Of a stretch of 64,000 bases of DNA, positions 10,304 to 49,846 are shown one piece after another. A program made the translations under genes and the position numbers. The stretch spans positions 9,077 to 73,076 of the forward strand of contig JACUUM010000002.1 of the NCBI GenBank assembly GCA_014859305.1, given 5' to 3'. This DNA is from Coriobacteriia bacterium. Lineage in GTDB: Bacteria; Actinomycetota; Coriobacteriia; Anaerosomatales; Kmv31. The notes under the pieces were generated by a model. It was not told where the DNA came from, made no database searches, and was given only the letters and a program-made list of their open reading frames with translations. The stretch's first letter is position 1, and the number at the start of each line of letters is the position of its first letter.

Positions 10304-10335
10304 AGCCCCTCACTCCGGCCCGGCGCGTTCCCGCG

Positions 10336-10344
10336 ATTGTAGCA
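10336..10344 (-). promoter_or_regulatory. Extended -10 element (TGcTACAAT) for the ATPase operon
   Basis: The minus strand reads agTGcTACAATcgcggg, about 33 nt upstream of ATG 10303, followed by the SD GGAGTGAGGGG. No good -35. Confidence 0.4.
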
Positions 10345-10427
10345 CTGGCCTCCCGGAGTACCTCGGGGGTGCCTGGGAGCGTGTCGCCAGCCTCGGTGAG
10401 CGGTCTGCGTTACGGCGCGAGCGGCCG

Positions 10428-10433
10428 TATAAT
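10428..10433 (+). promoter_or_regulatory. Perfect TATAAT -10 box, 7 nt upstream of an in-frame GTG (possible leaderless capA-like transcript)
   Basis: ccgTATAATcgtgcgcGTGagc was read directly. No SD lies between the box and the GTG. Confidence 0.4.
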
Positions 10434-10440
10434 CGTGCGC

Positions 10441-11664
10441 GTGAGCCCCTCACCCCTCAGGCGGCCGGTGCCCCTCCGCACGTACGGCAGGGCGAGGCGT
10501 CGGAGCGGCCGCGCGCTGCGCGGCGCCGGCGCCGTGCTGCTGCTGGTCGCCGTCGTCGCCGCGGCGGTCGCGCTGGTCTCCGGCGTACCGCTGCCGCTGG
10601 CCCGGGGATCGCGGGGCGCGGGCGCGGCATCGCCCCCCGCCTCCGAGCCCTCGACGGCGGCCATCCCGGCTCACGCGGCCGAGCCCGAGCCCGAGCCCGT
10701 CGAGTCGCGCCAGGCGACGCTGACCGTGGCGGCGGTCGGCGACATGATCTTCGACCGCAAGGTCGCCGCCCTCATCGCGGCCTCCGGCGGTGAGGCGCCG
10801 CTTGCGCGCGTCGCGCCCCTGCTCGCGCGAGCCGACATCGCCGTCGGGAACCTGGAGTCGCCCCTTGCCTCCGGTGGCACCAGGAAGGCCGACAAGGACG
10901 TGACCTTCCGAGGAGACCCGCGCGGCATCGAGGGGCTACGGCTGGCCGGCTTCGACTTCCTGTCGCTGGCGAACAACCACGCGCTCGACTACGGCCCGGA
11001 GGCGCTGGCCGAGACGGTCGCCGCGCTGGACGCCGCGGCCATCGGTCACGCGGGCGCCGGCGGGGACCGCGAGGCCGCCTGGCGGCCGGCGATCGCCGAG
11101 CGGCACGGCGCGTCGGTGGCCTTCCTGTCGTTCTCGCACATCCTGCCCGCGGGCTTCATCGCCACCTCCGGGAAGGCCGGCATTGCGCAGGGCCGCGAGA
11201 ACATGCCCGCCGTGCTCGAGGCGATCCGGGCCGCCAAGGAGGAGCACGACTACGTGCTCGTCTCGTTCCATTGGGGCGTGGAGTACGCCGACCACGCCAA
11301 CGGCGACCAGGTCCGCGACGCCAAGGCGGCCGTGGACGCGGGAGCCGACATGGTGCTGGCGCACCACCCGCACGTGATCCAGGGCGTGCAGCGGTACCGG
11401 GGGGCGCTCATCGCCTACTCGACCGGCGACTTCGTCTTCGACCACTACTCGCGCAAGACCGGCGAGGCGTTCATCCTCGACGCCGAGCTCGGGCCGGACG
11501 GCGTGGGAGACGTGAGCTTCACGCCGGTCTACCTCGACGGCAACGGCCGCCCCGATGTGGTGACCGGCCCCGAGGCGCGCGTCATCCTCCAGAGGCTTCG
11601 CGACATCTCCGCGCCGCTGGGGGGCAAGGTCGTCCTGACCGGCGACACGGCGGTGCTGCGATGA
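10441..11664 (+). CDS. CapA family (PGA_cap metallophosphatase-like) membrane-anchored protein
   Basis: VGDMIFDR...VGNLESPL...LSLANNHALDYG...SFHWGVEY...LAHHPHVIQG are CapA motifs. The N-terminus is Arg-rich and followed by a TM helix. The start is uncertain (GTG 10441 is favoured; the track start is 10369). Confidence 0.8.
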   Translation: MSPSPLRRPVPLRTYGRARRRSGRALRGAGAVLLLVAVVAAAVALVSGVPLPLARGSRGAGAASPPASEPSTAAIPAHAAEPEPEPVESRQATLTVAAVGDMIFDRKVAALIAASGGEAPLARVAPLLARADIAVGNLESPLASGGTRKADKDVTFRGDPRGIEGLRLAGFDFLSLANNHALDYGPEALAETVAALDAAAIGHAGAGGDREAAWRPAIAERHGASVAFLSFSHILPAGFIATSGKAGIAQGRENMPAVLEAIRAAKEEHDYVLVSFHWGVEYADHANGDQVRDAKAAVDAGADMVLAHHPHVIQGVQRYRGALIAYSTGDFVFDHYSRKTGEAFILDAELGPDGVGDVSFTPVYLDGNGRPDVVTGPEARVILQRLRDISAPLGGKVVLTGDTAVLR

Positions 11665-12954: not shown

Positions 12955-13009
12955 CTGTGAGCCCGCCCCGAGGCGCCGCGGGACGTGCATGCCGGTGAAG
13001 GGAGAGCCC

Positions 13010-13288
13010 GTGAAGACCCGAGCGATCCTCTCCGTGCTGGGAGAGGACCGAGTCGGCATCGTCGCCGGCATCTCGAGCGTGCTGGCCGAGACGGGGACGA
13101 ACATCGAGGACATCCGCCAGACGATCCTGTCGGGCACCTTCTCCATGACGATGCTAGTCACCGTCGACGAGGACGTCACGCCCTTCGAGACCGTCCAGGC
13201 CCGCCTCGCCGAGGCGGGAGAGCGGATCGGCGTGCAGGTGACGCTGCAGCGCGAGGACGTGTTCCGCTACATGCACCGGATCGGCTGA
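13010..13288 (+). CDS. ACT domain-containing protein (UPF0237 family)
   Basis: [34 protein letters not shown] is an ACT fold signature. GTG 13010 follows the SD GAAGGGAGAG. The track start 12989 is less likely. Confidence 0.85.
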
Positions 13289-13317
13289 GCCGTCCTCCCC
13301 CCGCCCGAGGAGCCCGC

Positions 13318-14682
13318 TTGGAGCTGAGCCCCGAGGAGATCGTCGAGACGCTGCTGATGGTCACGCAGCAGAACCTCGACATCCGCACGGTCACGCTGGG
13401 CGTCGCACTGGACGCCTGCGCGGGACGCGACGTCGAAGACGTCTCGCGCAGGGTGTACGAGACGGTCTGCCGACGAGCCGAACGGCTCGTGCCGGTCGTG
13501 GAGGCCGTGGAGCGCGAGTACGGGATCCCGGTCGTCAACAAGCGCGTCTCGGTCACGCCCGCCGCCCAGCTCGCTGCCGCGTGCGAGGGGGAGGATGCGG
13601 TGCCGATCGCCGAGGCGATGGACCGGGCGGCGGCCGAGGTCGGGGTGGACTTCATCGGGGGGTTCTCGGCGCTCGTGCACAAGGGCATCGGCGCGGGCGA
13701 CCGCCGCGTCATCGACTCCGTCCCGGAGGCGCTGGCGGCCACGGAGCGCGTGTGCTCCTCGGTGAACGTCGCATCCACGCGCGCGGGAATCAACATGGAC
13801 GCGGTGCTCCGTATGGCCGAGGTGGTCAAGGAGACCGCGCGCCTGACCGCCGAGCGGGACAGCATCGGCTGCGGCAAGCTGGTCGTGTTCTGCAACATGG
13901 TCGAGGACAACCCGTTCATGGCCGGGGCGACGCTCGGTCCCGGCGAGCCCGACGCCGTCGTCAACGTCGGCATCTCCGGCCCGGGCGTGGTTCGCGCCGT
14001 CGTCTCTTCGCTGTCCGAGGAGGCCGACCTCACGGAGGTCGCCGAGGCGGTCAAGGCGACGTCGTTCAAGATCACCCGCGCGGGCGAGCTGATCGCGCGC
14101 GAGACCGCTCGCCGCCTGGGGGTCGCGATGGGCATCGTGGACCTCTCGCTGGCGCCCACGCCGGCGGCCGGCGACAGCGTGGCCGGGATACTCGAGGCGA
14201 TGGGACTGCAGCGCTGCGGCGCCCCGGGGACCACCGCCGCCCTCGCTCTGCTCAACGACGCCGTCAAGAAGGGCGGCGCGATGGGCACGAGCTCGACCGG
14301 AGGCCTCTCCGGCGCCTTCATCCCCGTCTCCGAGGACGCCGGGATGGTGCGGGCGGTGGCCGAGGGAGCCCTGACGCTCGAGAAGCTCGAGGCCATGACG
14401 GCCGTGTGCTCGGTCGGGCTCGACATGATCGCCCTGCCGGGCGACACGAGCGCCGAGACTATCGCCGGGATCATCGCCGACGCCTGCGCGATCGGCATGG
14501 TGAACGGCAAGACCACTGCCGCGCGCCTCATCCCTGCCGCCGGCAAGTCCGCGGGGGACCGCGTCGACTTCGGCGGGCTGCTCGGGGCGGCGCCGGTGAT
14601 GTCCGTGAGCGCGTGGTCGGGCGCGGCCTTCGTGCGTCGCGGCGGCCGGCTGCCGGCTCCGCTGAGGAGCCTGGGCAACTGA
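13318..14682 (+). CDS. UPF0210 (PFL-like, DUF711) family protein
   Basis: The N-terminus [27 protein letters not shown] is typical of UPF0210. TTG start at 13318, 454 aa. The track ORF is over-extended to 12985. Confidence 0.85.
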
Positions 14683-14749: not shown

Positions 14750-14799
14750 GCCGTTCAGCGCATACTTCCGCCCGTCTATCCAGGAATCCCGCCGTTCGG
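14750..14799 (+). promoter_or_regulatory. Direct repeat GCCGTTC(A/G)G x2, 41 bp apart, upstream of the 899-aa surface protein gene
   Basis: GCCGTTCAG at 14750-14758 and GCCGTTCGG at 14791-14799. The core resembles the AlgR (LytTR family) CCGTTCGTC box. The functional link is speculative. Confidence 0.25.
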
Positions 14800-14931
14800 A
14801 CTGCTCGCGCTGTAGCGGGCGTCACACGTCCCGATGCATTCACCTGGCGGGCGAAGGGCCCGATCCCCAGGACCCACGGAGGAGGGGCCGTCCGGCGGCG
14901 GGGTGCGCGCCGGACACCTCCGCGAGGACAG

Positions 14932-17631
14932 ATGCGACCTCGACACTCACACAGGACGTCGCCGCGCCCGGCACGGAGTCGGGCACGCCGGCTGCGTGCC
15001 GCCGCGGCGCTGGTGCTGGCCGCGGCGCTGCCTTCGGCGGCCGCAGGCGTCGGTCTGGTCTCCACGACCATCGCCATCGACGGGGACATGACCGACTGGG
15101 CCGGCGTCCTGTCCAGCGCGCCCAACGTGACCTCCGACCCCATCGGCGCCGCCGACCCCGACAACCCCGGCTCGGCGAACCGCGACCTGTGCCTGGCCGC
15201 CTACACCTGGGACGCCGAGAACCTGTACGTCTACCTGCGCCGCACCGCCAGCGGCAACAACTCCGTGCACTACATCATCTACGTCGACGTCGACAACAGC
15301 GGGACGATGAGCGACGTCGACCGCGTGGTGGACCTCAACTACAACGGGTCCGCGTTCCAGCCCGGCGGCAGCGGCGTGTTCGGTTACGCGCCGGCGGCGC
15401 CGGGCGGCGACCCGCTCGTCGGCGACGGACAGGCCATGCCCGGACGTCTCGGCGCCCCGGTCCCGGACCCCGGCCTGAACGCCTCTGCGAACGGCGACGG
15501 CATCAGGCACGAGGCGGCGATCCCATGGGCGGCGCTCGGCTTGCCGGCGGGCTCTCCCGTCCAGCTCAAGTTCGCGTGCTCCCTCAACACCAACCTGCCC
15601 GCGTCGATCCAGGACAACACGGCGGTCGCCTCGCTGATACGGCGGCAGGTGGCCGTGTCGGCGGGGACGACCAGGGGCGGCGCGGCAGGCAACGACGTCG
15701 AGTTCGCACACACGGTCACCAACCACGGCAACGTCGACGACACGTACGACCTCTCCGCCGTCTCGGCGCGAGGGTGGCCGCTGCAGCTGACGGACGAGGC
15801 CGGCTCCCCGATCGCCTCTCTCGCGATCCCCGCCGGCGGCTCGGCCGGGATCCGCGTGCGCGTGACGATCCCGGCGGGGACCGCGGACGGCACGAGGGAC
15901 ACGCTGACCGTCACCTGCACGAGCTCCTCGGCGAGCCACGTCACGGCGAGCGCGACGGACCACGCCGTCTGCGGCGAGGTCATCGTGATCCCCGATCTCA
16001 CCAACTCCGTCGCTCCCGGCTCCGTGTCGGTCTTCCGCAACACGCTGGCCAACCACGGCGACCGGACGCTCACCCTCGCGCTCACCGCCGCCTCCGACCG
16101 GGGGTGGACCGCCGAGGTCTTCGCGGCCGACGGCGTGACCCCGCTGAGCGAAGCGGTACTGCCGCCCGGAGGCTCGCGCGCCGTGCGCGTGCGCGTCCAC
16201 GTGCCCGCCGGCGCCGCGCTGGGCACCGCCGATGTCACGTCGCTGCGCGCCGTGGCCCTCGACGACCCCGGCGTCGGAGGCACCGGCAGGGACACGACGC
16301 TCGTCCGGCCAGAGCTTTCCGTGGTGCCGGACAACACGGGGACCGCCGGGGCCGGCACAGCCGTGACGTACCTCCACACGGTGACCAACAGCTCGTCCGA
16401 GACGCGCACGGTCACCCTTGACGCCACGGACTCCTCCGGGTGGCCGGTGCAGGTGCTCGAAGCCGACGGCGTCACGCCGCTGGCCTCGGTCGCACTCCCG
16501 CCGTTCGGAGGCTCCTCTCCGGTCAGGGTAAGGGTCTCGGTGCCCGCCGGTGCGGCCTCGGGGGCGGTCTCGACCACGACCCTCAGGGCCGGCTGGGGCG
16601 CGCTCACGGCCGTCGCCACCGACGTCACGACCGTCTCGACCCTCGTGTTCTTCGCGGACGGCTCCTACGCCGAACCGACGGAGCACTTCGTCCTCGGCGA
16701 CGCCGTCCACGTTCGGGCCTCGGGGCTGGCACCGGGGTCGACGGTACGCTTCCGCTGGCTTGACACCTCCGGCGCCGTCGTGCACGCCAGCCCCGACGTC
16801 CCAGTCGACACGGGGGGCCAGGCGGCCTCCTCCTACACGATCCCTGCCGCCGGCCCTCCCGGCGCGTGGACGTGCGTCCTGGTCACGAACAAGGGTGCTG
16901 AGCTCGCACGCCGCACCTTCTACGCCGGCTACAGGGCGCACATCGAGTCGGTGTCGGCTCCCGACGTGCCCTCCGCCGCCTCCGACGTCTCCGCCGATGT
17001 CGTGCTGCGCAACCACGGAGCGGTCGTCATCGCCGACTCCACCCTGACGTACCTGGTGTGGCACGACGTCGACTCCGACGGCGTGTGCTCCAACGGCGAC
17101 CTGTACGTGGACGAGGCCGGAGAGATCGCCACGTACGCCGGGACCGGCGGCGAGAGGACGCGCCTCGGCAGCGGCGTGTCCGTCCCGGCCGGCGGGAGCT
17201 GGTCGGAGCCGGCGACCTGGACGGTCCCGGCGGCGAACCTCCCCTACCCCGGCACCTACCACGTGACGGCGGAGTGGCGGGCGGCCGACGGAACGGTCAT
17301 CGACACGCGGGGGACGACGTTCCTCGCCTCGGCCTACCGCCTGACGCTCACGATCAGCGAATCCGCGCTCGACGCGGGCACCGTGGAGCCCGGCAGCACG
17401 CACGTGTTGGCTCCGGTCAACGTCGCCGTCGAGGCGAACACCCGGTTCGACCTCTACAAGGCGGTCGGGGGGGATGCGGCGCTCATGGGGCTGTCCTCGG
17501 GGCTGCTCTCCCAGGTGGACCAGTCCTCGGGCCTGCACTTCTACGTCGACTCGATCTCCCTCGACATCCCCTGGGAGGCGGAGCCGGGTCCTCTCGGCGC
17601 CGTCCTCACCTACACGGTGGTGGCTCAGTGA
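14932..17631 (+). CDS. Large secreted multidomain cell-surface protein
   Basis: 899 aa with a signal peptide (RRLRAAAALVLAAALPSAAAG). The N-terminal IDGDMTDW...NLYVYLRR looks like a sugar-binding-type beta-sandwich. Three tandem repeats of about 105 aa (xTNHG...GWP...VRVRVxxPAG) follow. The C-terminal 100 aa are homologous to the next gene product. Confidence 0.85.
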   Translation: MRPRHSHRTSPRPARSRARRLRAAAALVLAAALPSAAAGVGLVSTTIAIDGDMTDWAGVLSSAPNVTSDPIGAADPDNPGSANRDLCLAAYTWDAENLYVYLRRTASGNNSVHYIIYVDVDNSGTMSDVDRVVDLNYNGSAFQPGGSGVFGYAPAAPGGDPLVGDGQAMPGRLGAPVPDPGLNASANGDGIRHEAAIPWAALGLPAGSPVQLKFACSLNTNLPASIQDNTAVASLIRRQVAVSAGTTRGGAAGNDVEFAHTVTNHGNVDDTYDLSAVSARGWPLQLTDEAGSPIASLAIPAGGSAGIRVRVTIPAGTADGTRDTLTVTCTSSSASHVTASATDHAVCGEVIVIPDLTNSVAPGSVSVFRNTLANHGDRTLTLALTAASDRGWTAEVFAADGVTPLSEAVLPPGGSRAVRVRVHVPAGAALGTADVTSLRAVALDDPGVGGTGRDTTLVRPELSVVPDNTGTAGAGTAVTYLHTVTNSSSETRTVTLDATDSSGWPVQVLEADGVTPLASVALPPFGGSSPVRVRVSVPAGAASGAVSTTTLRAGWGALTAVATDVTTVSTLVFFADGSYAEPTEHFVLGDAVHVRASGLAPGSTVRFRWLDTSGAVVHASPDVPVDTGGQAASSYTIPAAGPPGAWTCVLVTNKGAELARRTFYAGYRAHIESVSAPDVPSAASDVSADVVLRNHGAVVIADSTLTYLVWHDVDSDGVCSNGDLYVDEAGEIATYAGTGGERTRLGSGVSVPAGGSWSEPATWTVPAANLPYPGTYHVTAEWRAADGTVIDTRGTTFLASAYRLTLTISESALDAGTVEPGSTHVLAPVNVAVEANTRFDLYKAVGGDAALMGLSSGLLSQVDQSSGLHFYVDSISLDIPWEAEPGPLGAVLTYTVVAQ

Positions 17632-17800
17632 GCCGCCGGAGATCAACGCTCGCCGCCTTCGGCCCCTCGCACATCCGGGCGCGGTGGCCGGGGGGCGGGC
17701 TGCACATAGAGGGGGGTGGTCCCTGAGAGACGACCACTCCGCAGAACCACGTGTTCGAGAGTCACGTACATGTCAGCAGGTAGTTGGAAGGAGAAGGACC

Positions 17801-18268
17801 ATGAAGAGAACGTTGATGGCAGGGTTCCTGGCAGTGGTGCTGGTCGCCGGGCTCGTCACGACAGCGACCGCAGCCCCGCAGTCCTTCAGCGGGAACCTCG
17901 TCGGGGGCAAGTGGCAGGCCGGCCCCGGCGACGTGGTCGTCACCGCCGCCGTGAACCCGAAGGTCGAGCTCACGCTCTCCGAAGACCTGGTCGACGCCGG
18001 CGCCCTCGACCCCGACATCCCCGCACCGCAGTGGACGCTCGCGGTGAACGTGGATACAGCGGCCAACGTGCCCTGTGACCTGACCAAGAGCGTCGTGACC
18101 GACATGGACGGCATCGCGACGCCGCTGTTCGAGTCGGACCTGGCAGCGCTCATCGCCGATATCCGCGGCGTGAACAACTACACCGACAACTACGCCATCT
18201 CGGTCGGCTACGACACGGACCCGGGCAACTACAGCGCGACCGTCACCTACACGCTGGTCCAGAGGTAA
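17801..18268 (+). CDS. Small secreted protein, WxL-like module (paralogue of the C-terminus of the 899-aa protein)
   Basis: ATG 17801 follows GGAAGGAGAAGG. Signal peptide MKRTLMAGFLAVVLVAGLVTTATA. VELTLSEDLVDAG...VNVDTAANVPCDLTK...YSATVTYTLVQR aligns with residues 803-899 of the upstream protein. Confidence 0.8.
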   Translation: MKRTLMAGFLAVVLVAGLVTTATAAPQSFSGNLVGGKWQAGPGDVVVTAAVNPKVELTLSEDLVDAGALDPDIPAPQWTLAVNVDTAANVPCDLTKSVVTDMDGIATPLFESDLAALIADIRGVNNYTDNYAISVGYDTDPGNYSATVTYTLVQR

Positions 18269-18286
18269 CACTGCCGGACGCAGCAT

Positions 18287-18323
18287 GAAGGTCCCGCCGT
18301 CCGTCCCGGGCGGCGGGACCTTC
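18287..18323. terminator. Bidirectional hairpin between convergent genes
   Basis: Perfect 13-bp stem GAAGGTCCCGCCG / CGGCGGGACCTTC with an 11-nt loop, between the stops at 18268 and 18356. No U-tract. Confidence 0.55.
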
Positions 18324-18355
18324 CTCGCGTCCGCGGACGATCCCCCGGAGGTCTC

Positions 18356-19432
18356 CTAAGCCGTCCGGTCCACGCTCCGCTCGTCCGGCGGCCCGGCGGA
18401 GTCGGAAGGCGGGGGTCCGTCCCCGCGCTCGCGACGCATGCGGTCCCTCCCTCGGGAGCCCTCCGCACGGGCGCGGCGCCGGGCGGCGAAGACGGCGAGC
18501 CGCCAGAGCAGCCACAGAGCCATGAGCCCCGCCGCCCCGGCCGCGGCGCCTATAGCCCATGCCGGGACGATCCAGACGGCCCGCTCCTCGACGATGCTCT
18601 CGGTCGATCCGCCGTCCTCGGTCCGGTACTCGACCACCAGACGGGCGACGTGCTTGCCGACCACGTCCCCCTCCAGATCGAGTCGCCCTCCGCCGGACAG
18701 GTCCGTGCCTGCGTACACGGTGGTCTCGGTCATGACCGAGCTGCCGGCCCTCTCGACGCCGCCGGGTCCCGACAGGATCAGGGCGGCGCGCACACGCTTG
18801 TCGATGTTGCCCGTGTTGCGCACGGCGAAGCTGTAGGGGAGGTTGTCCCCGGTGACCAGCGCGTCGGTGGTGAACGAGCCTATGCTCAACCGCTCGACGA
18901 CCTCGCCGCGTACGCGCGTCTTCAGCCTCGTCCCGATGCGTCCGGAGACCCGCGAGATGGACCCGCCGGCTACCGGGTCGAGCGAGGCCATCTCGAAGAA
19001 GATGACGCTGTTGTGATCGCCCGGCGGGGTGTTGGGCGGTACCTCGAACCGGAACTTGACGGGCACCTTCTCTCCGGCCTCGAGTTCCATGTACGGCGTG
19101 TTGCCCACGGCCTTGGCCCGTTTGGGCAGCTCGAGCCGGACCCAGCTGGCCGGCCCGGCGAAGGCCGTCATGCTCTCGCGGTCGGGGGTGGTGAAGGTCA
19201 ACTCCCCGGTCTCGCCGACCTCCTGGTCCGCAACGTAGACCAGCACGGTCATCGGCTCGCTGCCCTCGTTCATGACCACGACCTCGCCCTCGCCGCTCCC
19301 GCCGGCCTCTACGTCGAAGCGGAAGCTGAGCGCCGAGAGCGCGATGGTGCGCTGGGCGGCCGCGGGCGCCGGCGCGAGTAGCGCCGCGGCCAGGAGTATC
19401 GGCGCGAGCGGCCGCCAGCGGCCGCGCCTCAT
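18356..19432 (-). CDS. Signal-peptide, beta-sandwich, C-terminally TM-anchored surface protein (DUF916/DUF3324-like architecture)
   Basis: 358 aa. Signal peptide RPLAPILLAAALLAPAPAAAQ. FRFDVEAGGSGEGEVVVMNEGSEPMTVLVYV...VKFRFEVPPNTPPGDHNSVIFFEM. TM helix WAIGAAAGAAGLMALWLLW followed by a basic tail. The ATG overlaps the regulator stop (ATGA). Confidence 0.75.
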   Translation of the reverse strand: MRRGRWRPLAPILLAAALLAPAPAAAQRTIALSALSFRFDVEAGGSGEGEVVVMNEGSEPMTVLVYVADQEVGETGELTFTTPDRESMTAFAGPASWVRLELPKRAKAVGNTPYMELEAGEKVPVKFRFEVPPNTPPGDHNSVIFFEMASLDPVAGGSISRVSGRIGTRLKTRVRGEVVERLSIGSFTTDALVTGDNLPYSFAVRNTGNIDKRVRAALILSGPGGVERAGSSVMTETTVYAGTDLSGGGRLDLEGDVVGKHVARLVVEYRTEDGGSTESIVEERAVWIVPAWAIGAAAGAAGLMALWLLWRLAVFAARRRARAEGSRGRDRMRRERGDGPPPSDSAGPPDERSVDRTA

Positions 19433-20169
19433 ATCCCTACCGCCTCGCGGAACGCGCGGGCCTGGCGCCGTGCGACCGGGATGTGCGTCTCGTCCCGGTC
19501 GCCGGCGACCACGACGTAGCCGCCGTCCAGCCGAAGTATCTCCTTGATCCGGTTGAGGTTGATCATGTAGCTGCGGTGCAGCCTGTTGAAGGCGTCCTTG
19601 GACAGCTTGCGCTCCAGGTCGGTGAGGGTGAGGTCCACGAGGTACTGGTTCTCGTAGGTGTGCACGTACGTGGACTTGTTGCGGGCCGAGACGAAGACGA
19701 TGTCGTCGATGTTGAGCAGGACGGTCCGGCCGCCCTTGCGCACCGCCAGCTTGCGGAACTCCCCCTCGCCGCCCGCCCCCTGCTGGGCGGACTGACGCCC
19801 CGAGCGCGCGAGGCTCTGAACCCGCGCGGAGAGCTCGAGGATGCTGAAGGGCTTGGTCACGTACTGCTGGACGCCCTGCTTGAAAGCCAGGATCTTCGCG
19901 AGGTCCTGCGTCTTGGCGGTGAGCATGATGACGGGGATGTCAGCGGTCATGGGGTCGTTGCGGATCTCCATCAGCGTCATCCAGCCGTCGACCCGGGGCA
20001 TCATGATGTCCAGGACGACGACATCGACCGGTTCCCGGCCCAGCACGTCCAGGGCCTCGGCGCCGTCGCCCGCGCCGAGCACGCGCATGCCGTCGGCCTC
20101 CAGTCCCATCCGGATCATCTCGACGACCGAAGCGTCGTCGTCGACGACGAGGACGTTGACTCCCTCCAT
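19429..20169 (-). CDS. LytTR-family response regulator (receiver + LytTR DNA-binding domain), no cognate kinase nearby
   Basis: Start ATG 20169 (MEGVNVLVVDDD) follows GGAGG. The receiver has VVVLDIMMP and KPF. The LytTR domain is IDDIVFVSARNKSTYVHT...FNRLHRSYMINLNRI. Confidence 0.9.
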   Translation of the reverse strand: MEGVNVLVVDDDASVVEMIRMGLEADGMRVLGAGDGAEALDVLGREPVDVVVLDIMMPRVDGWMTLMEIRNDPMTADIPVIMLTAKTQDLAKILAFKQGVQQYVTKPFSILELSARVQSLARSGRQSAQQGAGGEGEFRKLAVRKGGRTVLLNIDDIVFVSARNKSTYVHTYENQYLVDLTLTDLERKLSKDAFNRLHRSYMINLNRIKEILRLDGGYVVVAGDRDETHIPVARRQARAFREAVGI

Positions 20170-20329: not shown

Positions 20330-21772
20330 TCAGGCTCCCGTCAGCCAGCCGTCCATCGCCCGCGCCGCGCGCACCCCCGCGCCCATCGCGAGTATCACCG
20401 TCGCCGACCCGGTCACGCAGTCGCCGCCGGCGTAGACGCCGGGGATGGAGGTCGCGCCGTCCTCGTCCGTCTCGACGTATCCCCGGCCGGTCAGCCCCAG
20501 GTCCGGAGCGGTCGCCGACAGCAGCGGGTTCGCGCGAGTACCCACGGCCACGACCACCGTGTCGCAGTCGACGGTGAACTCACTGCCCATGATGCACACC
20601 GGCGCGCGACGGCCGCTCTCGTCGGGCTCGCCGAGCTCCATGCGCTGCGCGACGAGCCCCGTGACCCACCCGTCCTGCCCGAGGACCTCCACCGGCGAGC
20701 ACAGCATCTCGAAGCGGACGCCCTCCTCGCGGGCGTGGTGGACCTCCTCGCGCCGGGCGGGCATCTCGTCCTCGGTCCGGCGATACACGAGGAAGACGTC
20801 CTCGGCGCCGAGACGCAACGCCGTGCGCGCCGAGTCCATCGCGACGTTGCCGCCGCCGATCACGGCCACCTTCCGCCCCCGCCACACCGGGGTGTCCGCG
20901 CGCGGGAACTCGTAGGCGCGCATGAGGTTGACGCGGGTGAGGAACTCGTTCGCCGAATACACGCCGTTGAAGTTCTCGCCGGGGATCCCGAGGAAGACCG
21001 GCAGCCCCGCCCCGTTCCCGAGGAAGACCGCGTCGTAGCCGAGCTCCTCGCGCAGCTCGCCCAGCGTGTGGGTGGCGCCGATGACGGCGTCGGTGACGAT
21101 CTCGACGCCGAAGCCGCGCAAGGCGTCGATCTCCTCGGCGACGATGGACTTGGGCAGGCGGAACTCCGGTATCCCGTACACGAGCACGCCGCCGGGCTCG
21201 TGCAGGCTCTCGAAGATCGTGACGGCGTGCCCCAGGCGCGCGAGCTCGCCCGCGCACGCCAGTCCCGCGGGGCCGGACCCCACCACGGCGACGCGCTTCC
21301 CGGTGGGCTCGCCGGGCACGGCGACGCAGCGGTGCCGGGCATCGCAGGCGAGGTCGAAGTCGCCGAGGAATCGCTCCAGGCGCCCGATGGCGACCGGCTC
21401 GCCCTTCTTCGCGAGCACGCACGCCACCTCGCACTGATCCTCCTGCGGACAGACGCGGCCGCACACCGCGGGAAGGGGGTTGCGCTCCTTGAGCAACGAC
21501 ACCCCGTCGGCCCAGTCGCCGCGCTGCACGGCGGCGATGAACGCCTTGATGTCGATGTTGACCGGACAGCCCTCGATGCAGGTGGGGTTGCGGCACTGCA
21601 GGCAGCGCTCGGCCTCCTCGCGGGCCTGCTCCTCGGAGTAGCCCAGGCCGACCTCCGAGAAGTCGCCGGCGCGCTCGCGCGCGTCGCGCTCGGGCATCGG
21701 GGTGCGCGCGGCCCGCGACGGCTTCCGGCGCTCGCCCTCGGGCTTGCGCGCGCCGCCTCCGGTCCCGCTCAC
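20330..21772 (-). CDS. nfnB: NADPH-dependent glutamate synthase beta-chain-like oxidoreductase (NfnB-type large subunit)
   Basis: CLQCRNPTCIEGCPVNIDI, VAVVGSGPAGLACA and VAVIGGGNVAMD are present. The GTG 21772 start overlaps the nfnA stop (GTGA); ATG 21697 is an alternative. The track ORF is over-extended. Confidence 0.85.
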   Translation of the reverse strand: MSGTGGGARKPEGERRKPSRAARTPMPERDARERAGDFSEVGLGYSEEQAREEAERCLQCRNPTCIEGCPVNIDIKAFIAAVQRGDWADGVSLLKERNPLPAVCGRVCPQEDQCEVACVLAKKGEPVAIGRLERFLGDFDLACDARHRCVAVPGEPTGKRVAVVGSGPAGLACAGELARLGHAVTIFESLHEPGGVLVYGIPEFRLPKSIVAEEIDALRGFGVEIVTDAVIGATHTLGELREELGYDAVFLGNGAGLPVFLGIPGENFNGVYSANEFLTRVNLMRAYEFPRADTPVWRGRKVAVIGGGNVAMDSARTALRLGAEDVFLVYRRTEDEMPARREEVHHAREEGVRFEMLCSPVEVLGQDGWVTGLVAQRMELGEPDESGRRAPVCIMGSEFTVDCDTVVVAVGTRANPLLSATAPDLGLTGRGYVETDEDGATSIPGVYAGGDCVTGSATVILAMGAGVRAARAMDGWLTGA

Positions 21773-22611
21773 TCCTTCGGCCGGCACGTGCACTCCTCCT
21801 CGTACGCGGCCGCGGAGACGCGCTCCTCCTCGGCGTAGATGCGCTGGCGGCTCATCAGCTCGGCGAAATCCACCGCGTGCCCGTCGAAGTCCGGCCCGTC
21901 CACGCATCCGAACCGCGTCTTCCCGCCCACGGTCACGCGGCAGGAGCCGCACATGCCGGTGCCGTCGACCATGATCGGGTTGAGGGAGACCGTCGTCGGC
22001 ACGCCGAACTCGGCGGTCGTGTCGGCGCAGAAGCGCATCATGATCGCCGGCCCCACGGCGAACGCGTGGTCGATCGCGCCCGCCTCGCACAGCTCCTTCA
22101 GCGGCGCGGTGACGAGCGCCTTGCGCCCGGCCGACCCGTCGTCGGTCACCACCTCGAGCTTGACGCCCATCGCGCGGAACTCGTCCTCGAGCACGAGCAG
22201 GCCGGCGTTGCGCGCGCCGAGGATCGCCGTGACGTCGTCGCCCGCCTCGACCATCGCACGCGCCACCGGGTAGGCCACGGCCGCGCCCACGCCGCCGCCG
22301 ACGACCGCCACCCGCCCGAGACCGCCGGCGTGCGTGGGGTTGCCGAGCGGGCCCACGAGGTCGGCCAGGCTGTCACCGGGGGCCATGTGCGACAGCGCGT
22401 GGGTCGTCTTGCCGACCCGCATGAAGATGAACCGGACCCAGCCCTCCTCGGCCGACCAGTCCGAGAACGTCAGCGGGATGCGCTCGCCGCCGGCACCCAC
22501 ACGCAGCATGAGGAACTGCCCGGCACGGACCTTGCGTGCTATCGTCGGCGCCTCGACACCCATCTCGAAGACTGCGTCCGAGAGCTGCCTCGTGTGCAGG
22601 ATGCGGAACAT
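21769..22611 (-). CDS. nfnA: Sulfide/dihydroorotate dehydrogenase-like FAD/NAD-binding protein (NfnA-type small subunit)
   Basis: 280 aa. MFRILHTRQLSDAVFEMGVEAP...GQFLMLRV...VVGGGVGAAVAYPVARA, with a C-terminal Cys cluster GMCGSCRV. Confidence 0.85.
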   Translation of the reverse strand: MFRILHTRQLSDAVFEMGVEAPTIARKVRAGQFLMLRVGAGGERIPLTFSDWSAEEGWVRFIFMRVGKTTHALSHMAPGDSLADLVGPLGNPTHAGGLGRVAVVGGGVGAAVAYPVARAMVEAGDDVTAILGARNAGLLVLEDEFRAMGVKLEVVTDDGSAGRKALVTAPLKELCEAGAIDHAFAVGPAIMMRFCADTTAEFGVPTTVSLNPIMVDGTGMCGSCRVTVGGKTRFGCVDGPDFDGHAVDFAELMSRQRIYAEEERVSAAAYEEECTCRPKE

Positions 22612-42017: not shown

Positions 42018-42133
42018 CGGGGCTGCTCCGTTCGTGCGATGAGGGCGAACAGCGGCCGATAACGCCCTAGCACAGTATCGGCACAACTCCGCCCAGGAAT
42101 GAAGCGACAATCCCGCCTTGCCGATATACGCTG

Positions 42134-44080
42134 GTGACGAACGGCCCCTTCCGGCGCCGGGGACGAGAGGAGGACCTGGGCTTGAGCGGAGAGGCACACA
42201 CACGCGCCGAGGAGGTCCTCCGCGCTCTCGCCGGGGCGGTGAACGTCGCGCGCCTCTACCCGCCCTCCAGCGAGCTCCCGCGCCAGGCCGTCACCCGCTT
42301 CCTCGCGGCCTGCCCGGACGCCGCCGACGGGCCGGTGCGGTTCGCCGTGGACCGCAAGGGGTTCCGCAGCGGCGAGGGGGACGCCTGCGCGAGCATCCCC
42401 CAGGTGCTCAGCCTGGCCGAGACCCTGCACGCACTGCAGATCGCGCAGCTCATCGTGGCCCCCGGCGTCACCGAGGCCGAGGCGGTCGCCTTCGTCGGCC
42501 TCGTGAACTCGGACACCCGGGCTCTCCGCGAGGGCGGCGGGCTGCGTCGAGGGCTGGGCGCGGCCGGCGTGGAGCGCATAGCGGTGATCGAGGTGACGCT
42601 GCGCGCCTCGGAGGAGGAGGGTATCGCCGGGCTGGACCTCACCGCCGCGCCGCTCGAGGAGATCGGACGCGCGACCGCGGTGGCGGCCGAGGAGTGGGCC
42701 CGCAGCGCATCGCAGGGCGACGGCGCGGACAGGCTCTCCGAAGCGCTCGACGGGCTCGAGGAGGCCGCCTGCGAGCTCGCCGAGCAGCGGGTGGCCGAGG
42801 CCATGATGATCCTGGACGAGCCGACCCGCGTGAAGCTGCTGGGGCAGGCCCTCGCGCCGGACCTCTGCGGGCAGCGCATGGGGGGCATGATGCGCGTGAT
42901 ATCGCGGATGCAGCCGGCCGCGCTCGCGCGGCTGCTGCGGCTCGTGGCGGAGCGCGCCGGGACTCGGCCCGACAAGCTGCTCGCCTCGCTGGAGCTGCCC
43001 GAGGAGCTCATGCGCGAGCTCGGCGTCCTGCTCTCCCCGCCGCCCGAGGCCGGGCCGGAGCGCGGCGTGCCCGCCGAGGCCGACGCCACCGCCATGGCGG
43101 CCGACGTCGCGGAGGAGGACGAGAGCTGCGAGATCGAGCGCCAGATCGCGCTCTCCGCGCCGCAGCTCGCGGCCGGCAAGGCGTTGCTGACGACGGTGGC
43201 GGTGGCGAGCGAGCATCCCTCGCTCGAGGCGATCGAGGCTATCCGCGCAGCGCTGGCGCCTGCCGCCCGCGACGGAGCGCTGCGCGAGGTGCGCGAGGCC
43301 CTGGCGCAGCTGAGCGAGATGGAGTCAGACCCGGCGCTGGCGCTCGCCGCGGAGGACGCGCTCACCTCGCTGGCCGACATCGACGTGCTGACGGCCGTGT
43401 GCCGGGCGCCGATGTCGCACGCCGACGCCGTGGTCGCGGGCGAGATACTGAGGGCCGCCGGACCGCTGGGCGCCGAAGCCCTGCTCTCCTGCTACGTGGA
43501 GGCCAACGGCTCGGCGCGGTCGCTGCTGCGGCCGGTACTGCGCAGCATGGCCGAGGGGGCGCTGGCCGCCGCGAGCCGCCACATGCGCACGGCGGACAGC
43601 GCGGTGGCCGAGGCGGTCGTGCGGATACTCCCCGACTTCGGCGACCGGCGGGCCGTGTCCGGCGCCAACCACGCCCTCGAGCACCTGGACGCGCGGGTGC
43701 GCAAAGCCGCGGTGACCGCCTTGGGCGAGATGCGCTCCGAGGAGGCCACCGCCGGCCTCGCCAAGGCGCTGGCGCATTGGGACCCCGAGACCCGACGGTT
43801 CGCGGCCCGCGAGATCGGGCGGGCCGGCGCGGCCGGGGCGCTGCCGGCGCTGCTGCGCATCCTCGAGGAGATCACGATGTTCGAGCGCAACTACGAGCTC
43901 AAGAAGGAAGTGATAAAGAGCCTGGAGATCCTCGGGAGCCGCGACGCGATCCCGATGCTGCGCCGCATCGCTCAACGTCCGTTCGTCTTAGGCCGAAAGA
44001 ACAAGGAGCTACGGTTCCTCGCCCGAAACGCCCTTGCGAGCCTCGAGAGGATCCGGGACGAGAAGGAGGTTGCGACGTGA
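42134..44080 (+). CDS. HEAT/armadillo-repeat protein with an N-terminal domain paralogous to that of the downstream HD-GYP protein
   Basis: 648 aa. C-terminal HEAT-like repeats are DARVRKAAVTALGEM, DPETRRFAAREIGRAG and AIPMLRRIA. An alternative TTG start at 42182 lies 7 nt after GAGAGGAGGA. Confidence 0.7.
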   Translation: MTNGPFRRRGREEDLGLSGEAHTRAEEVLRALAGAVNVARLYPPSSELPRQAVTRFLAACPDAADGPVRFAVDRKGFRSGEGDACASIPQVLSLAETLHALQIAQLIVAPGVTEAEAVAFVGLVNSDTRALREGGGLRRGLGAAGVERIAVIEVTLRASEEEGIAGLDLTAAPLEEIGRATAVAAEEWARSASQGDGADRLSEALDGLEEAACELAEQRVAEAMMILDEPTRVKLLGQALAPDLCGQRMGGMMRVISRMQPAALARLLRLVAERAGTRPDKLLASLELPEELMRELGVLLSPPPEAGPERGVPAEADATAMAADVAEEDESCEIERQIALSAPQLAAGKALLTTVAVASEHPSLEAIEAIRAALAPAARDGALREVREALAQLSEMESDPALALAAEDALTSLADIDVLTAVCRAPMSHADAVVAGEILRAAGPLGAEALLSCYVEANGSARSLLRPVLRSMAEGALAAASRHMRTADSAVAEAVVRILPDFGDRRAVSGANHALEHLDARVRKAAVTALGEMRSEEATAGLAKALAHWDPETRRFAAREIGRAGAAGALPALLRILEEITMFERNYELKKEVIKSLEILGSRDAIPMLRRIAQRPFVLGRKNKELRFLARNALASLERIRDEKEVAT

Positions 44081-46355: not shown

Positions 46356-48068
46356 TCACGGGCGGCGCCGCAGCGCCACCATCGCCACGTCGTCGTGCAG
46401 CCTGCCGCCGGCGAAGTCCAGGATCGCGCCCAGCACGCCGTCCACGAGCGCCTGGGGCCCGCCGCCGTAGCATCCGCCCAGCACTCGCCGGAGCCGCCCC
46501 TGGCCGAAGAAGCGCCCTTCGCGCCTGACCTCGGTCACGCCGTCGGTGTACATCAGCAGCGTCTCGTGCTCGAGCCGCAGCGTCACCTCGGCGTAGCGTC
46601 CCTCGAACGCGCCGAGCACGGTCCCGGGCGGCATGTCGACGAAGCGCGCGCGCTCGCCGCACACGACCGGCTCCGGGTGACCCGCCGAGGACAGCCGGAC
46701 CTCACCGGAGCTGGGATCGACGACCGCGAACAGGGCGGTGACGAAGGTGCCCGGCTCGAACTGCCGGACCAGAGCGCGGTTCAGCCGCGACAGCACCTCC
46801 GCCGGCGAGGGATCGAGATAGGCGAGCGCGCGCGCGGCGCTGCGGGCGGTCTCGGTCATGCCGGCTGCCCTCAGCCCCTTGCCGGACACGTCGGCCACGA
46901 GCGCCGCGACGAGACCGCCGTCGAGCTCGAAGACGTCGTAGAAGTCCCCGCCGACGCGGTCGGCCTCGTGCGCCGGGCGGTACACGACGCCGAGGTCGAC
47001 GCCGGGCACCTCCGGCACCGGCCTCTGAAGCGCTCCGCGGAGCACCTCGGCGGCATGATGCTCCTCCTCGTACAGGCGCGCATTCGTCAGGGCGAGCGAG
47101 GCGGAAGCGGCCAGCCTCTCGGCGAACTCGACCACCGGCTCGGTGAACCCGACGGGCTCGCTGTGGTAGTGCAGCCCGAGCACCCCCACGACCTCCTCGC
47201 GCACGAAGAGCGGCACGCCGAGGATGCTCTTGATGCCGAAGGTCTCCAGCGCGGCCGCGACGCGCTCGTCGGCGGAGACGTCGTGGAAGACGACGGCGCT
47301 GCGCGTTTCGACGGCCATCTCCGCCACGGGGGTCTCCTCGGGGCTGAAGCGGCGGTCCTTGGCCACGGCGAGCAGCTTCTCGCTCACGTACGGGCTGCTC
47401 CACCCCTGCGGCGTCCGCAGCGCGACCGCGGACGACTCGCACCCGGCGGCGTCGGCCGCGGCGTCGACGAGGCGCTGCATGATCTCCTCGGCGTGCAGTG
47501 TCGAGTGGATGACGCCGTCCAGAGCCTCCAGGGCCTCGGCGAGCTGCTGGCGCCTGACGCGCTCGGTCACCTCCACCAGAGAGAACACGAGCCCGCGCAC
47601 GGTACCGTCCTCGGCCTTCAGCGGCGTCAGCGTCCAGTCCCAGTAGGTCACGCCCCGCCACGGCTGGTGTTCGTAGACGAACGGCTTGGCCTTGAACGCG
47701 ACCGGCTCGCCGGTGTCGCGCGCCTTCCGGAAGATCGCCTCGTTCTCCTCGTTCGGGAACAGCTCGAAGTGGTTCCTTCCGATGAGCTCCTCCTTGCTCA
47801 TCCGGGCGCCGCGGGCGTACGTGGAGTTGACCAGCACGAAGTTGAAGTCGGGGTCCAGGTAGACGAGACCGGCCTCGGGCATGTTCTCCATCATCGCGAC
47901 GAGGGTGTCGCGTTCCTCGGCCGGGCGCGAGCTCAGCTCACCGAGACCGCACCTGATCCAGCACGGCTCTTGGTGCCACACCGCATCGGGACGAGGCGAA
48001 CAGCGACGGGCGGCGGCATCGCCGGAGTCGTCGCCTGGGGATCTGAGCACGTGGTCGGACCGGTCCAT
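46356..48068 (-). CDS. PAS-GAF-PP2C (SpoIIE/RsbU-type) serine phosphatase
   Basis: The PAS domain is LVYLDPDFNFVLVNSTYAR...GRNHFELFP and a GAF-like middle follows. The C-terminus GGDFYDVF...LVADVSGKGLRAAG...LLMYTDGVTE is PPM/SpoIIE. The start is uncertain (ATG 48068 or 47894). Confidence 0.85.
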   Translation of the reverse strand: MDRSDHVLRSPGDDSGDAAARRCSPRPDAVWHQEPCWIRCGLGELSSRPAEERDTLVAMMENMPEAGLVYLDPDFNFVLVNSTYARGARMSKEELIGRNHFELFPNEENEAIFRKARDTGEPVAFKAKPFVYEHQPWRGVTYWDWTLTPLKAEDGTVRGLVFSLVEVTERVRRQQLAEALEALDGVIHSTLHAEEIMQRLVDAAADAAGCESSAVALRTPQGWSSPYVSEKLLAVAKDRRFSPEETPVAEMAVETRSAVVFHDVSADERVAAALETFGIKSILGVPLFVREEVVGVLGLHYHSEPVGFTEPVVEFAERLAASASLALTNARLYEEEHHAAEVLRGALQRPVPEVPGVDLGVVYRPAHEADRVGGDFYDVFELDGGLVAALVADVSGKGLRAAGMTETARSAARALAYLDPSPAEVLSRLNRALVRQFEPGTFVTALFAVVDPSSGEVRLSSAGHPEPVVCGERARFVDMPPGTVLGAFEGRYAEVTLRLEHETLLMYTDGVTEVRREGRFFGQGRLRRVLGGCYGGGPQALVDGVLGAILDFAGGRLHDDVAMVALRRRP

Positions 48069-48332
48069 GGCGCCGCCCTGCGGGAGGTGGACCTTTGTCG
48101 AGGATACCCGAACCGGCGGCTCCCGACACCGGCACGCGCGTCGCAGTCCCGCTCGGACCGATGGCTCGCGCGTTCCTGGCAGAGGCCGCCGGGAAGGGCT
48201 GGCCGACTTCCTCGAGCATGCGCTCGTGAAGCACTCCCACCCGTCGTCCCTCGCCCGACGTGCCATGCATGCTCCAAGCCCTCCAGGCAGAGGGGCCGGC
48301 CCGATGACGAGGCCGGCCCTTCATCATTCCTA

Positions 48333-49716: not shown

Positions 49717-49846
49717 GGGGTCGGTGCGCGTCGGCCGCCGCGGCGCTCCCGGGGAGACCGCCGGCGGGAACGGCGAGCACTACTGCCAGCGCCGCTGCCA
49801 GCGCGGCGCGCCCCGACCCGAGGAGATGTCGTGTGACCGCTCTCAC
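49694..49846 (-). other. 50-codon ORF encoding a canonical signal peptide, out of frame with the CWB2 body (apparent 1-nt frameshift)
   Basis: From GTG 49846 it reads VRAVTRHLLGSGRAALAAALAVVLAVPAGGLPGSAAAADAHR... and stops at 49694. It overlaps the first 23 nt of the main ORF in the adjacent frame. Confidence 0.6.

Follow-up and report, generated by a model that had tools for sequence, protein, structure and literature searches.

The 64,000-nt contig stretch analysed here, hereafter the window, belongs to a metagenome-assembled genome (MAG) of a Coriobacteriia bacterium and has 72% GC. It carries a cluster of four contiguous genes, named here P1, P2, P3 and the response regulator. P1 (14932-17631, + strand) encodes a secreted multidomain protein of 899 amino acids (aa), and P2 (17801-18268, +) encodes a secreted protein of 155 aa. 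P3 (18356-19432, -) encodes a 358-aa protein of the WxLIP superfamily, and the response regulator (19429-20169, -) is a 246-aa protein with a receiver and a LytTR domain. The NCBI locus tags at the cluster are IBX62_00575 and IBX62_00580. WxL clusters attach proteins to Gram-positive surfaces without sortases, by means that are poorly understood, and they have been linked to virulence and to interaction with hosts or plant glycans. To our knowledge, nearly all known examples come from Lactobacillales and Bacillales. The chances are about even, in our judgement, that the present locus is a lineage-specific WxL/WxLIP surface system of the Csc (cell-surface complex) type, in which P3 would capture a module shared by P1 and P2 under the control of the LytTR regulator.

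The cluster is arranged as two convergent transcription units, P1/P2 on the + strand and P3/regulator on the - strand. The TGA of the regulator and the ATG of P3 overlap as ATGA, and the P2 gene is preceded by a strong Shine-Dalgarno sequence, GGAAGGAG. Reading of the sequence reveals a GC-rich hairpin, GGTCCCGCCG...CGGCGGGACC (18290-18320), in the gap where P2 and P3 converge; it is likely a bidirectional transcription stop, though it has no T-tract; a scan of the region for consensus promoters and terminators called nothing, this hairpin included. A Pfam scan of the four proteins gave no LPXTG, SLH, CWB2 or LysM match. The four genes with their coordinates, the convergent layout, the overlap of stop and start codons and the absence of these four features had all been claimed in a preliminary description of this DNA, and the open reading frame (ORF) check and the Pfam scan bear them out.

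P3 can be described as composed of a signal peptide (aa 1-26), a DUF916-like immunoglobulin (Ig) domain with a PGDH motif (aa ~27-175), a second Ig domain with an NxGN motif (aa ~176-285) and a transmembrane (TM) helix (aa ~288-312; nt 18497-18571, -). The helix is followed by an Arg-rich cytoplasmic tail, which is short, of low complexity and poorly conserved. The signal peptide, the two β-rich halves, the single C-terminal TM helix and the basic tail, as first described, are confirmed by sequence and alignment. In WxLIP proteins, which are 320-380 aa long, a signal peptide precedes two Ig-like domains in tandem, and one TM helix lies at the C-terminus (PMC10599100); this is the layout and the size of P3.

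The relationship of P3 to WxLIP was followed through intermediates. The single distant match of P3 is the Micromonospora protein P0005 (E 8.5e-4), which passes PF06030 (WxLIP_PGBD, the peptidoglycan-binding domain of WxLIP, formerly DUF916) with 42 bits and is named 'WxL protein peptidoglycan domain-containing' at NCBI. Two P3 orthologues, P0003 (51% identical) and P0004 (37%), match PF06030 with E 1.8e-4 and 1e-3 over profile positions 16-113 of 121, with scores of 21.9 and 19.6 bits that lie below the cut-off of 27.3. Two comparison sets were used, one from actinobacterial plasmid/chromid loci with 'DUF916 domain-containing proteins' and the other from Firmicute loci with DUF916+DUF3324 proteins. 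In hhalign, the P3 family aligns to the actinobacterial DUF916 proteins with a probability of 99.6% (E 7e-25) over 276 columns, which cover both Ig domains and the TM helix. The actinobacterial proteins align in turn to Firmicute WxLIP with 96.4% over both domains, and the P3 family compared directly with Firmicute WxLIP gives 33%. Because the actinobacterial intermediates link the P3 family to Firmicute WxLIP, these profile alignments show P3 to be a remote WxLIP homologue, a member of the superfamily outside the Pfam family boundary; the TM-anchored DUF916-type protein of the preliminary description is upheld on this basis and by the sub-threshold matches of the orthologues. The second domain of P3 aligns to the HBD region solely via the alignment of the actinobacterial to the Firmicute profile. 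At the position of the NQIDKxxxYFDLK strand, which is conserved near the N-terminus of WxLIP, P3 has LSALSFRFDVEAG, in which F-x-F-D-V aligns to Y-F-D-L in hhalign and NQIDK is absent. A PDB sequence search with the P3 family returned nothing relevant.

P1 begins with a signal peptide (~aa 1-38) and an N-terminal domain to which no family was assigned (aa ~39-245). These are followed by three tandem Ig-like repeats of ~107 aa each (aa 246-568; nt 15667-16635, +), which are of the NEW3/FixG_C/Ig_VWA7 type. The repeats are pairwise 42-45% identical (E 4e-17 and 3e-14) and pass the Pfam cut-offs of FixG_C (41.3 bits), Ig_VWA7 (32.6) and NPCBM_assoc (NEW3, PF10633; 29.4), so that the suggested comparison with NEW3 gave matches above threshold to this and to other Ig-like families. 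Two further Ig-like domains, one of them weakly MG2-like (aa ~569-795), separate the repeats from a C-terminal module of ~105 aa (aa 796-899; nt 17317-17628, +), which ends in GAVLTYTVVAQ and matches the hidden Markov model (HMM) of the module family described below with a domain E of 1.5e-17. The signal peptide, the repeats and the terminal module had been recognised before. An orthologue with 55% identity is found in the related locus L001, and a PDB sequence search with P1 gave nothing relevant.

P2 consists of little more than this module. Its signal peptide (aa 1-24, with an A-x-A cleavage motif) is followed by a variable linker, an alternating-hydrophobic N-terminal strand, GDVVVTAAVNPK (17927-17962, +), which is a candidate donor strand, and the module itself (aa ~55-155), which ends in YSATVTYTLVQR. 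Residues 37-155 of P2 and 781-899 of P1 are 31% identical (E=3e-10), and the common module proposed for the two proteins therefore stands. A homology search with the single P2 sequence returned P2 alone. The family was built from the orthologues of related loci, extended by a profile search and completed by an exhaustive HMMER scan (E<=1e-3), which gave ~380 clusters at 50% identity; 122 members were taken for the Pfam and NCBIfam scans, the column counts and the AlphaFold alignment. Most members have 135-170 aa, a subset has ~265 aa and a few have ~900 aa. The module is C-terminal in every architecture seen, either alone, behind a domain of ~130 aa, or behind ~800 aa of unrelated adhesin-like domains, as in P1 and in a NIDO-domain protein of locus L020. 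[quoted passage not shown] A PDB sequence search with the P2 family was likewise without a relevant match.

Two of the longer architectures deserve description. The ~265-aa sub-family (P0108, P0110, P0111, P0118, P0125 and ~15 similar proteins, with L023:338-1135 and L024:867-1664) has an N-terminal β domain of ~130 aa with the motif ...TFPxGTxVSxA...GQTxTxTF...GIxNPxxxGTYN, for which no Pfam or NCBIfam match was found, and the order of N-terminal domain, linker and C-terminal domain in these proteins is similar to that in Pam pilins. The 928-aa protein of L020 (L020:3899-6685, -) has NIDO and FN3/HYR-like regions and ends in a longer module of ~130 aa. By eye, its segments AYDFSCAATDF and LPAGALNYAV resemble GWSLTGRVTDF and IDAGRLTWTP of actinobacterial WxL domains, and it could be an intermediate form; WxL profiles do not detect it.

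Eleven related loci in Coriobacteriia/Actinomycetota MAGs were compared, a three-sequence P3 alignment having served for locus scanning. The regulator-P3 operon is present in L001, L003-L006, L007, L019/L020 and L022-L024, although L007 shows no more than the regulator and the beginning of P3 before its contig ends. A convergent small module gene is present wherever the contig reaches far enough. The regulator is 73-90% identical across these loci and P3 40-58%, and their translational coupling is kept in every related locus with a visible junction. The second module gene varies. It is of the 899-aa P1 type in the window, L001 and L005, where the P1 homologue lies on the other side of the regulator-P3 pair, still adjacent to it; it encodes a 928-aa NIDO-domain protein ending in the module in L020, a 265-aa protein in L023 and L024, and a second small protein in L022, and there is none in L003 and L006. 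In the window, the cluster is inserted between an ACT-domain/DUF711 pair (UPF0237/UPF0210-like; 12989-14682, +) and a gltD-like/PyrK-like oxidoreductase pair (20330-22611, -). Every related locus is flanked by the same two pairs, and only the content between them turns over. This constant core with variable module-tagged cargo argues for functional coupling, with a strength that is limited by the single chromosomal site. Of the conserved four-gene neighbourhood that the preliminary description had put up for testing, the regulator, P3 and the small gene are kept, while the large protein varies or is absent. The architecture that it had likened to Csc/WxL clusters, a small, a large and a TM-anchored protein, is present in the cluster. 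A WxL cluster has been defined as a minimum of one WxLIP together with two WxL proteins within four genes (PMC10599100). The contiguous WxLIP homologue and two module proteins of the window correspond to this definition only if the module counts as WxL, and L003 and L006 have one module protein each.

Whether the module can be so counted depends on its motifs and on its profile relationships. WxL domains carry two Trp-x-Leu motifs, the distal one inside YxxxLTWxLxxxP (PMC5817068, PMC9772566). The module family has F66 in 101 of 122 members and N89 in all 122. At the proximal position 92 it has Tyr (58), Phe (35) or Trp (20), followed by Leu, Ile or Val, so that an aromatic-x-aliphatic motif occurs in ~113/122, and the distal Y150 is found in 117/122 within YxxxVxYT[VAL]xQ. 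In a greedy hhalign alignment, which has no statistical support, the FG motif of WxL is matched by VDFG, the proximal motif by SNxx[Y/F/W]x[L/I/V] and the distal one by YxxxVxYT[V/A/L]. The WxL motif pattern is thus retained in the family with the tryptophans mostly replaced. The window copies read C-D-L (P2) and F-D-L (P1) at the proximal and Y-T-L (P2) and Y-T-V (P1) at the distal position, and the two tryptophans are not found in them. The change from Trp to Tyr in the C-terminal motif, first noticed in the window, holds throughout the family. The change from Phe to Ala in the opening motif does not: it is peculiar to the window copies (VDAG in P2, LDAG in P1) and to the large protein of L001 (LDAG), the family consensus being VDFG.

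Among 1265 six-frame ORFs, which include 18 of WxL type, the six best non-family matches of a mature-only family HMM are all WxL-type, the best with E 8.7e-4, and one of these matches, an Arthrobacter ORF, aligns co-linearly all the way from the first strand to its C-terminus. In the reverse search, a combined WxL profile returned module-family members first (E 4.4e-4). An hhalign comparison of the family with one WxL sequence was uninformative. Judged from its sequence, the module sits in the WxL position with the WxL motif grammar and outside the Pfam WxL family, and its homology to WxL is plausible rather than demonstrated.

The response regulator has a receiver domain (aa 6-117; Response_reg, 94.1 bits) and a LytTR DNA-binding domain (aa 148-244; LytTR, 85.3 bits), both above the Pfam threshold, in agreement with its first assignment. 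Its phospho-acceptor residues are complete (D10/D11, D54, T84 and K106). No histidine kinase motif was found in any window ORF of at least 200 aa, a Pfam scan of ten large unassigned window ORFs revealed no kinase, and there is none in the related loci either. With no histidine kinase detected in the window, the regulator is an orphan at least locally, as had been suggested.

Candidate control sites were compared with the core box of AlgR, CCGTTCGTC (PMC4064291). The AlgR-type box was scored as CCGTTCRTC, a motif defined after the upstream regions of locus genes in the related loci had been inspected. In the relatives, a 9-bp box upstream of locus genes is identical to the AlgR core (CCGTTCGTC / CCGTTTGTC). 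This box or near copies of it lie upstream of the regulator and P2 genes, at -33 from the regulator start and at -160 and -125 from the P2 start in L003, and in L006 the boxes CCGTTTGTC and CCGTTCATC are 20 bp apart. Counting near copies, the target intergenic DNA of the relatives (2.7 kb) has 20 matches versus 143 in 135 kb elsewhere, a 7-fold enrichment that is indicative only, because the motif was defined post hoc and the loci are related. In the window, three boxes, CCGTTCAGC (14751), CCGTCTATC (14772) and CCGTTCGGA (14792), lie on the + strand upstream of P1 (region 14751-14800), with 1, 2 and 2 mismatches and spacings of 21 and 20 bp. They make a weak candidate for a LytTR site and are not significant alone, because equal matches are common in GC-rich DNA. 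The whole window has 64 matches with at most one mismatch versus 48.5 expected, 1 of them in 578 bp of target intergenic DNA. We therefore claim AlgR sites for the relatives only. Exact CCGTTCGTC boxes also occur at 47676, inside the gene of a 654-aa PAS-GAF-SpoIIE (PP2C-type phosphatase) sensor (46356-48320, -), and at 42136 and 43979, at both ends of a HEAT-repeat ORF (42071-44080); these may be due to chance.

Based on these features, a model of the system can be made. P3 would be the hub, exported by the Sec pathway, held by its one C-terminal TM helix and exposing its two Ig-like domains. Its clients would be P2, which is the module alone, and P1, with an N-terminal binding domain, five Ig-like spacers and the module at its C-terminus. 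In this model, the module is a β-sandwich of ~105 aa that would take the place of a WxL domain, with Tyr or Phe instead of Trp. The secreted modules would be caught and stabilised by P3 at the membrane-wall interface through β-strand complementation, which AlphaFold predicts for WxLIP-WxL in the published model of WxL clusters (PMC9772566, PMC10599100), and contact of the module with peptidoglycan is also possible. P1 would in this way face outward and act as an adhesin or bind a ligand, and P2 would occupy or extend the P3 platform. The regulator would be co-translated with P3, phosphorylated by a kinase encoded elsewhere, and would act through the CCGTTCRTC boxes.

Several results weigh against such a WxL/WxLIP system. 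The Pfam WxL profile (PF13731 / IPR027994; gathering score 25 bits), on which positive controls score 134-176 bits, matches neither P1 nor P2 nor the P1 module (E<=1-10), and it matches none of the 122 family members at E<=1; the comparison with this profile that had been proposed thus turned out negative. In hhalign, the module family aligns to WxL with 24.8% (actinobacterial), 28.2% (combined) and 1.7% (Firmicute), where no more than the last ~33 columns are aligned, namely the hairpin ...tL.vP...pG.Y.aTvtYt.., a motif that also matches a pilin model of the Candidate Phyla Radiation (CPR). Of the proposed WxL-type module, the position and the motif order are supported, and the homology is unproven. 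The module is also shorter, with ~105 aa as opposed to 120-190 aa in WxL domains. Window P3 has no PF06030 match at E<=1 and no Pfam match passing E=0.005, and PF11797 (WxLIP_HBD, DUF3324) is detected neither in window P3 nor in its orthologues and actinobacterial homologues. Of the two families proposed for P3, PF06030 is therefore supported in the orthologues, below threshold, and PF11797 in none. The AlgR-type boxes of the window are degenerate and not enriched. Finally, the co-occurrence of the genes is partly plain synteny, because all loci lie at one chromosomal site in one clade.

This synteny could mean that the genes are mere neighbours, P1 and P2 forming a new secreted family, wall-associated or substrate-binding, and P3 with the regulator being a separate unit kept beside them by inheritance. 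Since every related locus lies at the same site, between the same two housekeeping pairs, neighbourhood conservation alone is no proof of coupling; P1/P2 and P3/regulator are separate convergent units, and the module is an unproven homologue of WxL domains. However, the content of the site turns over (large protein absent, of 265, 899 or 928 aa, or two small proteins), and yet the inserts all carry the module beside P3. The P1 homologue of L005 switched sides and stayed adjacent, and distant P3 homologues of Actinomycetes are also flanked by small and large proteins with WxL-type ends. We hold it improbable that the genes are unconnected. The regulator could also be read as the true partner of P3. 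HdrM and BrsM are membrane-anchored modulators of streptococcal LytTR regulatory systems (HdrRM/BrsRM), and P3 might likewise sense through its Ig domains and relay through its charged tail. The translational coupling of the two genes, the regulator being far more conserved than P3 and the missing histidine kinase in the window are in keeping with such a role, which we nevertheless regard as very improbable: the complete phospho-acceptor pocket of the regulator points to a kinase elsewhere rather than to control by sequestration, the tail is short, poorly conserved and of low complexity, and no LytTR gene adjoins the P3 homologues of Actinomycetes and Firmicutes.

The structure of the module raises another alternative, which the preliminary description does not consider: an usher-less pilus of a monoderm actinobacterium, assembled by donor-strand exchange, in which P2 would be the fibre, P1 the tip and P3 the chaperone and/or anchor. 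The module would be a truncated pilin domain of Ig-like fold with an open groove, and the N-terminal VxVxAxV strand of P2 would be inserted into this groove in the previous subunit, and P1, or the 265-aa and 928-aa variants of the relatives, would be a strand-accepting tip subunit or adhesin; the arrangement is likened to PamC/PamD/PamR of the CPR Pam pilus and to PapD/FimC of chaperone-usher pili. The Pam pilus, which is of a monoderm type, has single-domain pilins and pilins of an N-terminal domain, a linker and a C-terminal domain, as well as two-domain chaperones with a C-terminal TM helix; its fibre forms by donor-strand exchange without an usher, and its pilins have been reported from CPR bacteria exclusively (10.64898/2026.03.03.709456). 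The three module architectures parallel PamT, PamA/B and tip adhesins, and P3 is similar to the Pam chaperones, which are anchored in the membrane, in having two Ig domains and a TM helix at the C-terminus (10.64898/2026.03.03.709456). The AlphaFold model of P2 from the 122-sequence alignment is all-β and confident, with a predicted local distance difference test (pLDDT) score of 87.7 that exceeds 90 over most of residues 51-155. Foldseek searches of the PDB with the P2 models, a check that had been proposed at the outset, gave no match at E<=1e-3. The best matches (E 6e-3 to 6.7e-3, template-modelling scores 0.36-0.5) are weak and are headed by CfaB, the PapG pilin domain bound to PapD, Caf1, FimA/G/I, CsuA/B, SafA and TLP-1; with both models, the weak one and that with pLDDT 87.7, donor-strand fibre subunits make up ~29 of the top 50. 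Among the 122 family members, the NCBIfam model CPR_Pam_pilin_C matches 14 (best E 1.2e-4), far below its 55-bit cut-off and over the C-terminal hairpin alone. Weak matches to PamT (2) and to enterobacterial fimbrial subunits (~7) and stray ones to DUF4402 and SCPU were also found, and window P2 and ten 265-aa members had no Pam pilin match in the NCBIfam scan. With no match above threshold, filing the module as a Pam or chaperone-usher pilin or as SCPU/DUF4402 was rejected. Neither AlphaFold model of the monomer has a DSSP strand at residues 43-51, the conserved alternating segment, which counts in favour of the pilus, but this segment may simply be strand A of the sandwich. P3 has no detectable similarity to Pam or Pap chaperones and is a WxLIP homologue instead, and no sortase, usher or termination subunit is evident. 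We know of no fibre formed with WxLIP. A pilus is thus a possibility that we consider rather unlikely. In the AlphaFold model of Hassan & Williamson, WxLIP inserts a strand into WxL (PMC10599100), and the donor-strand pilus and the WxL/WxLIP system that we prefer may converge in this respect.

WxL clusters that have DUF916 proteins occur in replicons of Clavibacter, Cellulosimicrobium, Arthrobacter, Streptomyces, Micromonospora, Nonomuraea and Embleya, where PGAP labels them 'DUF916 domain-containing protein' and hypothetical proteins only. Their partner domains are recognisable as WxL, with a Pfam WxL score of 29.1 bits on the large protein of L010 and an hhalign probability of 96.6% to the Firmicute set; the actinobacterial profile matches a B. 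cereus WxL protein (E 2.5e-8), and reverse searches with B. cereus/Enterococcus WxL gave 8e-9 to 5e-6. Overlooked WxL homologues lie beside the DUF916 genes at L009:5155-5781, L011:4127-4771, L013:4308-4817 and L014:4196-4738, and at the C-termini of large proteins at L010:3825-5858 and L002:6415-7908. Pfam and PGAP mostly miss the small and the large homologues alike, in which Leu or His stands in place of the second Trp. Actinomycetota probably have many more WxL clusters than their annotation shows. In Micromonospora chalcea (JBIUUI010000012.1; L002:6415-9164), an HtaA haem-uptake protein ends in a WxL-type domain (actinobacterial profile E 2e-20, Pfam WxL 22 bits), and its gene is directly upstream of a WxLIP homologue, inside a cluster of haem ABC-transporter and haem-oxygenase genes. 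This haem receptor therefore appears to be held at the surface by a WxL/WxLIP system.

Other surface-related genes are found in the window. A 424-aa ORF (48505-49779, -) has three CWB2 (PF04122) cell-wall-binding repeats (E 1.4e-51), and the organism therefore also anchors other surface proteins to its wall in the CWB2 manner. A PGA_cap protein (CapA-like, poly-gamma-glutamate capsule synthesis; E 2.4e-70) is encoded at 10306-11664 (+). Its gene adjoins apparent V-type ATPase genes, judging from the related loci, as L001 and L020 have V_ATPase_I, ATP-synt_C and vATP-synt_E in the region that matches its neighbourhood.

The WxLIP hub extends into Coriobacteriia and, via intermediates that escape Pfam, widely into Actinomycetes. 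If the WxL/WxLIP reading is correct, its client domain can be reduced to a Trp-less module of ~105 aa that current profiles miss. The ~380 clusters of 'hypothetical' proteins would gain a testable role. The compact module, with its confident model and conserved strand, is a system in which both strand complementation by WxLIP and pilus-like polymerisation could be tested, and the LytTR regulator with the AlgR-type boxes of the relatives offers a route to the switching signal. WxL clusters have for a long time been regarded as static complexes bound to the wall. Through the homology of P3 to WxLIP, the pilus reading, if true, would extend to them, and the WxL clusters of Firmicutes and Actinomycetes would share a mechanistic class with Pam and chaperone-usher pili.

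Compared with the Csc/WxL clusters (Siezen 2006; Brinster 2007; Hassan & Williamson 2022/2023: PMC9772566, PMC10599100), the locus has the same pair of secreted proteins, a small one with the module only and a large one with variable Ig-like or adhesin domains and the module at its C-terminus. P3, a protein of ~360 aa whose signal peptide precedes two Ig domains and a TM helix at the C-terminus, is a homologue of WxLIP via intermediates, and the order of motifs, FG, proximal aromatic-x-aliphatic and distal YxxxVxYT[VAL], is also shared. In contrast, the window module of ~105 aa escapes PF13731 and has Tyr, Phe or Cys for Trp, the second domain of window P3 escapes PF11797, there is no LPXTG partner gene, and the cluster is coupled to a LytTR regulator in a high-GC environmental Coriobacteriia host. 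Among the detectable relatives of P3, the closest are in the actinomycete clusters (hhalign 99.6%) and have the same single PF06030 signature and TM anchor. The distal motif of these clusters is already without Trp (TLTLTLL, TITLSLFE, TIVHSVI), as in the window module, and their large partners have enzymatic or lectin heads (GH43+Ricin, HtaA). Unlike the window, their partner domains have ~150 aa and keep a D-x-R...GW proximal motif, and they have no LytTR regulator.

With the Pam and chaperone-usher systems (Pap, Fim, Caf1, Csu), the locus has in common a C-terminal Ig-like module shared by single-domain proteins, proteins of N-domain, linker and C-domain, and adhesins with a pilin domain. 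The conserved alternating-hydrophobic strand and the best, though weak, structural and NCBIfam matches also point in this direction, and P3 is like PamC/D in its Sec export, two Ig domains and C-terminal TM helix. It differs from these systems in that no match is significant and P3 is of the WxLIP and not the PapD kind. The regulator resembles the AlgR/AgrA type in its receiver and LytTR domains and in the box of the relatives, which is identical to the AlgR core, and differs in that no cognate kinase is adjacent or found in the window, that it is coupled to a surface-protein gene and that the window boxes are degenerate. What is new here is the coupling of such a cluster to a LytTR regulator, its Coriobacteriia host, and a client module that lies outside every current family model.

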